Below are positions 43,875 through 47,151 of a stretch of 64,000 nt of DNA, piece by piece (the first letter of the stretch is position 1; each line of letters starts with the position of its first letter). Origin of the DNA: Pocillopora damicornis (lineage: Eukaryota); NCBI RefSeq assembly GCF_003704095.1, contig NW_020845647.1:620001-684000 (forward strand), written 5' to 3'. The position numbers were made by a program, and so were the translations under genes. Under the pieces are notes generated by a model. The model saw only the letters and a list, made by a program, of their open reading frames with translations, ran no database searches and was not told where the DNA came from.

Positions 43875-46800
43875 TTATAGCTTCCCTGTCAATGACAAAT
43901 GTTTCAGTCCAGCCACGGCCGACTGAAATCCAGCATTGTAATCCGTGGCCACCTCATTCTTGATAAAATCTGTTCTGTCATCTTTGTACTCGTCATTCTT
44001 ACCCGGGCCTCCAACTAAAGCACCGTACAAAATTTGCGGGTTGGGGTCTGGCTTGTTAAAGTCATTCCAACTGCAAGGGACGGGAGACAATGGGCAAGAA
44101 CTGCTGCGATGGTGAGGCCTTTCTGGTGGGTTGGTACCGAACCCTACCACAAAACTGCGGTCGCTATCACCCAACATGTAGTGAATTTGTTGCTTTGCGA
44201 AGTTGCGGAACGCAGTCGGTCTTATTCCATGGTCAGCGGCGACAAGAGCCAAAAAGGCAGTGTTGGCCGAGTAGCGGTTTGGACCCCACTGATCACGCCA
44301 GGCGAGGCCTTTTGGAGTGTAGTGGACTTCGTGTCCGGGAAGCCAACTCGTTATAAAAGTATCCACAGCTTGTTTGTACGAAGCTTTGTTTGTGATTGCA
44401 GCCAAGAGGACCTGAACGCCGCCTTTTTTGTCATCCCATGAAAACGCCCAAGGTTTTCCATTCATGGCAAAATCATTGTAGTACTGTTCGGCCTTAGAGA
44501 GATACTTTTGATCTTGGGTAGCTCTGAGGAGGAAAAAAGAGCTGTGCTAAACTGATTTCGAAAGACATGTTAACCAACGCGTTCGCATTTCATTGCAATA
44601 GCCAACTTCTTCACAAACTCCCTAGAATAAAATCCTATGACGCTCAATATAACATACGCCTGGTAATATTAGGAGCGAACAAATCGACTATCAAGGCTCC
44701 ATTTGTCTCTATAATTGTAAAGAAACGAAAGGCAGTATATGTTCGTTCTTACTAACAGTAGTCTTAAGCAGTCCGTTTGGACTGTCATTAATCGAACATA
44801 GAGAGAGGACAAGAGGACAAGGCTCAAGCTTTTGGTTGTGTTTGGCAATCAAATGGCCATCAAATGTCTCAAATCAATCAATTTGATTTCGGCGAACAAG
44901 AGCTCTTCTCAATCAATAAAAGTATTTTATTGATACATATATGTGGTTTACCAGTGACTCAATTAGACAATTTGCCCAGCTGTTGGCAAAAATAAGCCAA
45001 CAATGTTTATAATGTATCTCTCACTTACGGATCAACTCCTGCTATAGTTGTTAAAAAAGACACAATCTCACAAATGATCAAGGTTCCTTACTTGTACAGC
45101 CAAGCTGCACCCCAGACGAGTTCGTCTTTATATCCACTGTGCGAGCGGTAAAAGCTGGCTGCATTAGGAATGGAATCACTATACAGCCCACGGTTTTTAT
45201 CTGCAAAGTCATAAAGTTCAGCAGCGTGTTGAAGAAGTCTCATTGAATAGCTGATGTCTGTGGATCGGAAAGCGATTGAAGCCGCAGCAAGGGCTGCAGC
45301 TGTCTCAGCGGCCAGGTCTGATCCTGGTTTCTGAGGAGTGATCTTCCAGGCTGGTCTTCTCATGGTCATGTCCTCTGGTCTGCCCCAGTAACCATGATCA
45401 GCATTGCCATCACCAACCTTTTAGACAATTGGTCAAATGATAAGACAAGGCTTGAGATTAGTTTCCAGGAAAACTTACCGTAAGTTGGTTAAAATGGTTA
45501 GTTTTTTACAATTATCATGGGCATCACTTGGATACTAAGTAAATAATCAGTACCTGCCCGGTCTTACCTGTCCATAGAACTCATCTTGTTTCGTGTGTGC
45601 TTTCATAAAATAGTCCAAGGGCCACTTAATGGAGTCCAGCATGTAGCTCAACTCTCCAGCATCTTCATAAGCATCTCTATACTCCACTAAGCCCCAAGAC
45701 AACATAGTAACACTAAACGCCATCGGGAACCCAAACTTTACGTGATCTCCTGCATCATACCAGCCACCAGTCAGGTCCTCGCCATTATCACCGCGGTCAC
45801 CGAGTGCTGAGTCTTTCCGCCAGGGAACTCGGTTGGAGGAAGGAAGTTTACCTGATCGTTGAGCTTCGTAAAACAAAATGGAATCGTGAAGTACTGCGTC
45901 ATAATCAAATGGTGGGGGAGCACTGCTGGGTTTATTCGTGGTGGGTAGCTCAGTTGGCTGTTCTGTGGTGGTTGAAGGTACTTTCGTAGATGGTGACTCT
46001 GTGGTAGCTAGTGGTCTTTCGGTGGTTACTTCTTTAGTGGTTGGTAATTCGGTGGCAGTTGGTGGCTCTGTGACAGTTGTTGGTAAGTTGGTAGTTGGGG
46101 GTTCTGTGGTTGCTGGAGGCTCGGTGATAGTTGTTGGTCCGTTGGTAGCCGGTTGCTCTGTGGTATCTGGCTCTTTAGTGGTTGGTGGCTCTGTGACAGT
46201 TGTTGGTCCATTGGTAGTTGTTGGTTCTATGGTAGTTGGTGGCTCTGTGGCTGTCACTGGCTCTTTGGTTGTTGGTTTGGTGCTAGTTGGTGGTTCTGTG
46301 CCAGTAGGTGGTTCTGCGGTAACTGGTGGCATTGATGTCCCTGGTTCCTCTGTGGTGGTTGGTGGTTGGGTAGTACTAAAAGTACATCCTCCCTCACCTC
46401 CTCCAATCCAGCTCTCTTTCCGGCGAAACTCAATCGTGGCTTCACTCGGCGGGTCAGAATTCATTTGTTTCCTTCCAATAATGATCATCTCAAGCCTTGA
46501 ACATTTATCAAGATTGGCGTTATAGGGTCTGTTTTCCAGGATGTATACCTTGCGATCACTGGATCGCCATTTCTTGAACGCTTTTGGCGTTTGAAGCGCC
46601 CTCACAGCAATGGGGAATGTAAGTGTCATCTCCCAGCCTCCCTCGACCTTCTGCTGCATAAGAATACTAATTTTCATTTTAAATCCATTCGGCCATTCTT
46701 CAATCAATCTTGCAATGGACTTTTCTTGAACTGGGGGAGTCGCCCCCGGTGGGATTACTGTTGGGAATGGGGACATGTCGCATTTGGCGTTTCTTCCCGG

Positions 46801-47151
46801 GTGAAATTCTAGAGTTGCGGAAGGAGCAGCTTCATTGTTTTTCGCCTTTTCCCCAATAAACTCCATTTCCAATTTAGATCCAGCCTTGAGATTCCCATTG
46901 TACTGCTGATTCCTTAAACAGAAAACGCTATTACCCTGAGCAGAAGACAACCGACGAGCATTGGGAGCTTGAAGCTGCCCTATCGGCTTTGAAAACTTGA
47001 GTGACATCTTCCACCCTCCTGTTACACTCTGAGACATAATATGGCTAATCTTCATTTTGAAACCACTGGGCCAGTTATCTACTAGTTTGATATTTATTTC
47101 CTCACTGTATCCCAAAGAGACGAGACACAGAAGCAATAAGAATTCATTCAT
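43875..47151 (-). CDS. Secreted GH9 endo-beta-1,4-glucanase: signal peptide, two CBM2-like domains, Pro/Thr linker, GH9 domain
   Basis: Exons 47151-45568, 45417-45092 and 44523-43875 splice in frame. GH9 motifs: [78 protein letters not shown]. Two WPxGF...GGW...YNxNL modules at the N-terminus. Confidence 0.93.
45935..46375 (-). repeat. Coding tandem repeats of the TEPPTT mucin-like linker
   Basis: Recurring ACAGAGCCACCAAC units encoding TEPP(T/A)T. Confidence 0.8.

Follow-up and report, generated by a model that had tools for sequence, protein, structure and literature searches.

Organization of the Cellulase Locus

The stretch of Pocillopora damicornis DNA that was analysed (64,000 nucleotides, below called the window) carries a cellulase gene on its minus strand. 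Three coding exons (47151–45568, 45417–45092 and 44523–43875) form an open reading frame of 2559 nt with a single, terminal stop codon, encoding 852 amino acids, and the introns between them, of 150 nt and 568 nt, are both of the GT..AG type. At least half of the sampled words were present in 20 of the 24 sequencing runs listed, six of these 20 being RNA, and hardly any in the other four, which were set aside; splicing was checked in three such RNA runs (from three studies) and one DNA run. The contigs of all three RNA runs omit both coding introns exactly, one contig per run covering all three coding exons, and the DNA run retains both. This bears out the two GT/AG introns that the sequence-only reading had placed within the coding sequence. 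RNA contigs establish the presence of a transcript and carry no information on its level or tissue.

The same contigs extend into an upstream exon and thereby define a further intron of 818 nt in the 5′ UTR (47158–47975, GT..AG). The non-coding first exon lies at 47976–48068, the upper end being approximate, as given by loose ends of 68–93 nt in the contigs of the three RNA runs that match the window from 47978. The first coding exon (45568–47157, ATG at 47151) holds the predicted signal peptide, two CBM2-fold modules, a linker and the first 114 amino acids of the GH9 domain. It is followed by the 150-nt intron (45418–45567, phase 0, after the motif FYGQ), the second coding exon (45092–45417, 326 nt), the 568-nt intron (44524–45091, phase 2) and the last exon (43494–44523), which is coding down to 43875 and continues as 3′ UTR with AATAAA signals at 43795 and 43513. 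The 3′ ends of the RNA contigs lie at 43773, 43802 and 43494, two of them 19–22 nt beyond these signals. In a related locus, L002, the 150-nt intron is found at the same place and the second coding exon likewise measures 326 nt. Twelve database proteins break off at FYGQ, the site of this intron, which is consistent with an old and shared intron.

Pfam matches of the animal housekeeping type were obtained for 10 of the 15 neighbouring frames scanned, the neighbours being genes for xylulokinase-type FGGY, RRM, Med10 and PRELI proteins, matrixins and a GPCR. The closest named relatives of this single-exon GPCR are from Desmophyllum and Stylophora (61–64%), with Acropora and Nematostella near 40%, which marks the host as a stony coral. 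The FGGY gene stands head-to-head with the RRM gene at 3800–5000, the open frames overlapping near their starts. Matrix metalloproteinase genes are arranged in tandem on the minus strand at 29570–36820, and a 588-aa open frame on the same strand (23661–25427) gave no Pfam match at E 0.01. Upstream of the cellulase gene, sequence comparison revealed a degraded tandem copy of it (49712–50959) in which most of the gene is deleted; still recognisable are the beginning of module 1, fragments of the last exon, stop codons and an internal inversion (49764–50017, 87% identical). A short array of repeats of about 45 nt lies beside this copy at 50290–50450.

Signal Peptide, Linker and Catalytic Domain

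The predicted signal peptide comprises residues 1–16 (47104–47151, minus strand), and similar N-termini are encoded by the related loci L001–L004. The strongest hydrophobic 9-residue segment of the protein is formed by residues 5–13 and no other strong hydrophobic segment was found by hydropathy, so that secretion is predicted. The signal peptide proposed earlier thus has its hydrophobic N-terminus, the assignment as such being one from hydropathy. Residues 259–414 (45910–46377) form a linker rich in Thr, Pro and Glu which would be flexible and O-glycosylated. It measures 156 residues (53 Thr, 37 Pro, 19 Glu; Thr and Pro together 58%), in agreement with the roughly 150 residues of Pro/Thr linker noticed before.

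The GH9 catalytic domain (residues 415–839; 43917–45909, minus strand) is spread over three exons, which match the Glyco_hydro_9 profile with 161, 141 and 211 bits (cut-off 27.7) and cover its positions 1–117, 118–226 and 228–443 of 444. As had been claimed, both catalytic motifs, DAGD (466) and NEVA (826), are intact. D466 (45754–45756), D469 (45745–45747) and E827 (43953–43955) each agree with 34 of 35 aligned GH9s, and H774 agrees with all 35. GH9 enzymes work by an inverting Asp-Asp/Glu mechanism, and we take D466 and D469 of DAGD to be the catalytic Asp pair, H774 to be the HHR histidine and E827 of NEV to be the Glu acid. The full-length profile match and the catalytic residues identify the protein as a member of the GH9 family, and hydrolysis of β-1,4-glucan is predicted.

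The nearest solved structures are the endoglucanases of earthworm, polychaete and termite (PDB 3WC3, 8IHW, 4ZG8, 1KS8; E 1e-77 to 3e-73), which rank above bacterial Cel9s. They show the same motifs, but these chains consist of the catalytic domain without module pair or linker. No CBM3 was matched by Pfam in the coral cellulase, which stops 13 residues past the GH9 match. Processivity of Thermobifida fusca Cel9A/E4 is brought about by its fused CBM3c. That enzyme shares GH9 fold and motifs with the coral protein (PDB 1JS4; E 8e-48), but its CBM3c is absent from the latter. Given the missing CBM3c, the annelid and termite endoglucanase relatives and the catalytic residues, we predict a non-processive, endo-acting enzyme.

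The GH9 domain has 74% identity with an enzyme of Oculina and 71% with that of Nematostella. A tree of 58 GH9 domains built with FastTree places it inside a hexacorallian clade (0.91). A fast IQ-TREE run, in which 35 of 59 domains were kept and 24 dropped as redundant or long-branched, paired it with L002 (100), joined by Actinostola, Nematostella, Pocillopora and Oculina (SH-aLRT 87.4). Grouping with anthozoan enzymes is therefore the outcome of the GH9 phylogeny that had been suggested as a check. The deep branches disagree between the trees: Dendronephthya and the second Pocillopora domain fall in the anthozoan clade in FastTree and not in IQ-TREE, and the bacterial-looking P0189 is placed among animals in FastTree under midpoint rooting. 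According to passages of PMC6011409, animal GH9 is vertically inherited. Spliced introns, animal neighbours and anthozoan grouping uphold the earlier view that this is a coral gene and no contaminant, and an endogenous, coral-encoded GH9 with two CBM2-fold modules is supported.

Two CBM2-fold Modules with an Altered Binding Strip

Module 1 comprises residues 18–124 (46780–47100, minus strand) and module 2 residues 143–247 (46411–46725, minus strand). The two stretches together score 38.4 bits with the CBM_2 profile (cut-off 24); separately, module 1 reaches 28.5 bits and module 2 16.4 bits, which is below the cut-off. The modules are identical at 45 of 116 aligned positions, with a local score of 216 versus 26.6 ± 4.8 (maximum 47) in 1000 shuffles. 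An AlphaFold model of the pair, based on an alignment of 32, has a pLDDT of 90.5, and its best structural matches are CBM2 domains, namely 3ndy for module 1 (Z 10.3, rmsd 2.1, 94 residues) and 6bt9 for module 2 (Z 10.4, rmsd 1.9, 91 residues); as modelled, the CBM2 β-sandwich is intact. The profile search, which the sequence-only reading had itself suggested, the mutual similarity and the modelled fold confirm its two repeated CBM2-like modules. The order of modules, linker and GH9 domain also stands, from Pfam, module self-comparison and the intact catalytic motifs.

CBM2a domains contact flat cellulose through W17, W54 and W72 (PMC5935602, PMC11272768). At these positions both coral modules read W-P-Y, i.e. 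W27, P63 and Y84 in module 1 and W153, P189 and Y210 in module 2, and the planar aromatic strip of CBM2a is lacking. The Pro codons, at 46963–46965 and 46585–46587, stand where the central Trp would stack onto cellulose. This correspondence is ungapped in the alignment to the Actinostola modules; a single-sequence alignment pairs Cex W54 with R66 instead of P63, the position in module 1 being non-aromatic either way. The Gly three residues after W17 is kept as in CBM2a (G30, G156), and neither module has in its place the Arg that is a feature of the CBM2b xylan binders (PMC5935602). The CBM2a of Cellulomonas fimi Cex (PDB 1EXG, 6QFS; sequence match E 4e-5) is the top Foldseek match and shares W17 and the next Gly, but its W54 and W72 are replaced by Pro and Tyr in the coral modules, which are basic (pI 9.7–9.8, net charge +7 each). 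Module 2 has an additional Trp, W195, kept in three of the four loci L001–L004.

The modules are CBM2 by fold and fall short of the CBM2a binding strip, a change that the sequence-only reading did not mention. Its statement that the double CBM suits insoluble cellulose becomes doubtful because Pro occupies the central stacking position in both modules; Tyr at the W72 position and the lack of a CBM3c weaken it further. Judged by these residues, the modules are likely to bind crystalline cellulose poorly. With W27/W153, the CBM2a Gly, Tyr and W195 remaining, cellulose binding may persist, and natural CBM2s with two of the three Trp are known (PMC5935602).

Distribution of the Trp-to-Pro Change and Selection on the Modules

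From 220 proteins and the window protein 272 modules were extracted, 268 of which have a letter in the W54 column. Within the lineage of the cellulase (20 modules of 13 proteins, including the window protein and the 98% identical P0001, representative of a 384-member cluster) this letter is Pro in 18 cases, Gln in two and never aromatic. In the modules of the GH9-search set it is aromatic in 85 of 87 and Pro in none, and among the other representatives it is aromatic in 93 of 161 and Pro in 30. As far as the alignment tells, Trp-to-Pro is fixed in the cellulase's lineage, with parallels elsewhere. A change unique to the cellulase is excluded by the 30 other modules with Pro, which seemingly form two further branches in a tree that is weak owing to the short modules.

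The related loci L001–L004 are 67–75% identical to the window cellulase and have Pro in all eight of their modules. All eight retain the Trp of W27/W153 and the following Gly, and in four the third binding position (W72) is His or Ser. Non-synonymous differences in these modules (pN 0.12–0.20) are few compared with synonymous ones (pS 0.63–0.89). With synonymous sites close to saturation, dN/dS could be computed for the five of eight comparisons that are not saturated, and lies at 0.06–0.11. The modules are maintained by purifying selection, and these dN/dS values rule out that they are decaying. Among 34 coding differences listed, allelic or from near species (40 of 49 rows), the modules account for seven amino-acid and six silent changes and the GH9 domain for none and eight. 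Constraint is looser on the modules than on the GH9 enzyme, since 7 of 13 changes in the former alter an amino acid, as against 0 of 8 in the latter.

L002 (5953–9508) has the same three coding exons with an in-frame TAA at codon 674, and may be a dead copy or an assembly error. L003 (74% identical to the window cellulase) and L004 (67%) occur in one assembly, and paralogues therefore exist in this lineage. The number of modules also varies within it, P0006 having only one. In our searches of nearby topics, in a literature mostly without subscription journals, no paper on a Trp-to-Pro change in CBM2 was found.

Some further CBM2-like arrays were encountered. P0130 is an exon product of 1508 aa with seven CBM2-like modules ahead of the start of a GH9 domain; five of its repeats have the pattern W-P-W and the final one has W-W-W, seemingly a separate Trp-to-Pro event near the Dendronephthya modules. 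P0144, P0154 and P0187 belong here too. P0134, P0142 and P0146–P0148 consist of three or four CBM2-like modules only; in several, F-P-H takes the binding positions, and Pfam detects no catalytic domain.

Comparison with Known Cellulases

GH9 relatives numbered 269, and domain architectures were counted in the 120 listed. Of these 120, 52 have at least one module (of at least 75 aa) and 18 have two to four, three of the 18 (P0007, P0010, P0014) being models with two GH9 domains. In Actinostola and Dendronephthya a single GH9 domain is combined with two modules and a long linker, and three modules with GH9 are present in Ptychodera, Acanthaster, Holothuria, Diadema and Lytechinus. The deep-sea anemone Actinostola and the soft coral Dendronephthya are not known to harbour algal symbionts, and neither is Nematostella. 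Tandem modules as a mark of symbiotic hosts are thereby ruled out, two-module GH9s being present in Actinostola, Dendronephthya, echinoderms and hemichordates. The architecture is common in marine invertebrates, and enzyme and architecture alone are ordinary.

The closest counterparts in architecture and GH9 clade are Oculina P0016 (one module, 74% over GH9), Actinostola P0018, Dendronephthya P0029 and Pocillopora P0007. All seven of their modules read W-W-W, whereas W-P-Y is found in both modules of the window gene, which stands on a branch of its own. Among published enzymes, the Eurytemora affinis GH9 has a signal peptide, an N-terminal CBM2 array and a C-terminal GH9 as well, but with three modules (PMC12198962), and molluscan enzymes also combine signal peptide, N-terminal CBM2 and C-terminal GH9 (PMC7560691); the passages on these enzymes do not discuss binding residues. 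The Acropora digitifera GH9s cellulase-like-1 and -2 are likewise host-encoded and transcribed in a coral (PMC5710165), a likeness at the family level; the main text of that paper mentions no binding modules or domains. Coral GH9s, the idea of symbiont digestion (PMC5710165) and a GH9 with three CBM2s (PMC12198962) are already published, which makes the gene less new than had been proposed.

Discussion

We lean, with modest confidence, towards a gland-secreted, non-processive endoglucanase that acts on the glucans of algal food. We infer that gland cells would release the enzyme into mucus and gut, where the GH9 domain would cut amorphous cellulose and related glucans, and the W54-less modules would tether it not to crystalline cellulose but to a softer or non-cellulosic glycan of wall or mucus. 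In Nematostella, a cellulase serves as a marker of gland cells in ectoderm and pharynx (PMC4300403), which are described as producing mucin (bioRxiv 2022.05.11.491463), and in Acropora larvae an endoglucanase is located in vacuoles of ectodermal glands (PMC11997738). The passages on these cellulases give no GH family, and the proteins may be neither GH9 nor orthologues. In molluscs, GH9 expression is high in the hepatopancreas, a digestive gland (PMC7560691). The text of PMC9481973 makes no mention of cellulase.

The modules might instead still grip crystalline cellulose through their Trp, Tyr, nearby residues and the avidity of two modules, which would leave an ordinary CBM2-GH9 for cellulosic food. 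Conservation of the first Trp and next Gly in all eight modules of L001–L004, the presence of the W72 loop and the natural occurrence of two-Trp CBM2s (PMC5935602) speak for this. We nevertheless regard it as unlikely, if with some residual plausibility, the lost residue being the centre of the strip, where the other GH9 relatives have an aromatic residue in 85 of their 87 modules, and the third position being lost as well in half of the eight modules.

A small chance is left for a surface enzyme that damages settling algae, algal competitors and microbes with cellulose walls in the mucus and serves cleaning or defence, not nutrition. The mucin-producing ectodermal gland cells of Nematostella (PMC4300403, bioRxiv 2022.05.11.491463) and the ectodermal vacuoles of Acropora larvae would fit, the authors of the latter study expecting digestion to take place in endoderm (PMC11997738); the linker is mucin-like, and algal defence was proposed for coral GH9 along with symbiont digestion (PMC5710165). 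However, the Nematostella and Acropora enzymes are not established as orthologues of the window gene, and feeding accounts equally well for pharyngeal expression.

The sequence-only reading had suggested that the enzyme digests or remodels algal symbionts or prey. Prey remains plausible. The part on symbionts finds no specific support, the same design with intact Trp triads being present in Actinostola, Dendronephthya, echinoderms and hemichordates, and the cellulase expression published for cnidarians, GH family not given, lying in gland cells of ectoderm and pharynx. An enzyme dedicated to Symbiodiniaceae, whose walls it would thin or digest when the algae are taken up, give off sugar or are culled, would agree with the Acropora GH9 transcripts, which appear mainly from the planula stage onward, and with degradation of CMC by six of seven coral extracts (PMC5710165). 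Cellulolysis of the wall at low pH frees sugars from Breviolum, but the cellulase concerned is the alga's own GH7-CBM1 (PMC10438907). The Pro lineage was seen only in marine contigs and may be restricted to symbiotic corals; yet a literature search for expression found no coral host study beyond PMC5710165 and PMC11997738. A symbiont-specific role is unlikely and its chances are slim; the enzyme is likely secreted for digestion in general and not reserved for the symbionts.

Slimmer still are those of a stony-coral-specific GH9 paralogue with both CBM2s retuned, by Trp-to-Pro and a basic surface, to a non-cellulosic and probably anionic glycan of Symbiodiniaceae. Pro modules have a net charge of +3.9 (n = 42) versus −1.1 for the others (n = 155), a mere hint as few related lineages contribute. 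If true, the retuned modules would direct the coral's cellulase onto the walls of its symbionts, to release sugar or to cull them. Contamination from bacteria or algae, or a recent horizontal transfer, is practically negligible: CBM2-GH9 is frequent in bacteria and the feature-based look-alikes, leads only, were bacterial CBM2 clusters (scores 0.86–0.87), but the splicing of three introns, the animal genes nearby, the grouping with anthozoans and an intron position common to 12 database proteins stand against both, splicing and tree position refuting them.

Coral cellulase activity has so far been measured only in crude extracts of the holobiont. The gene described here is a clean, expressed host candidate for this activity. 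It also provides a natural contrast, one branch of coral GH9 carrying modules with Trp and another carrying modules with Pro that are maintained by selection. Comparing the two kinds of module would reveal what change of ligand, if any, has taken place in animal CBM2s.
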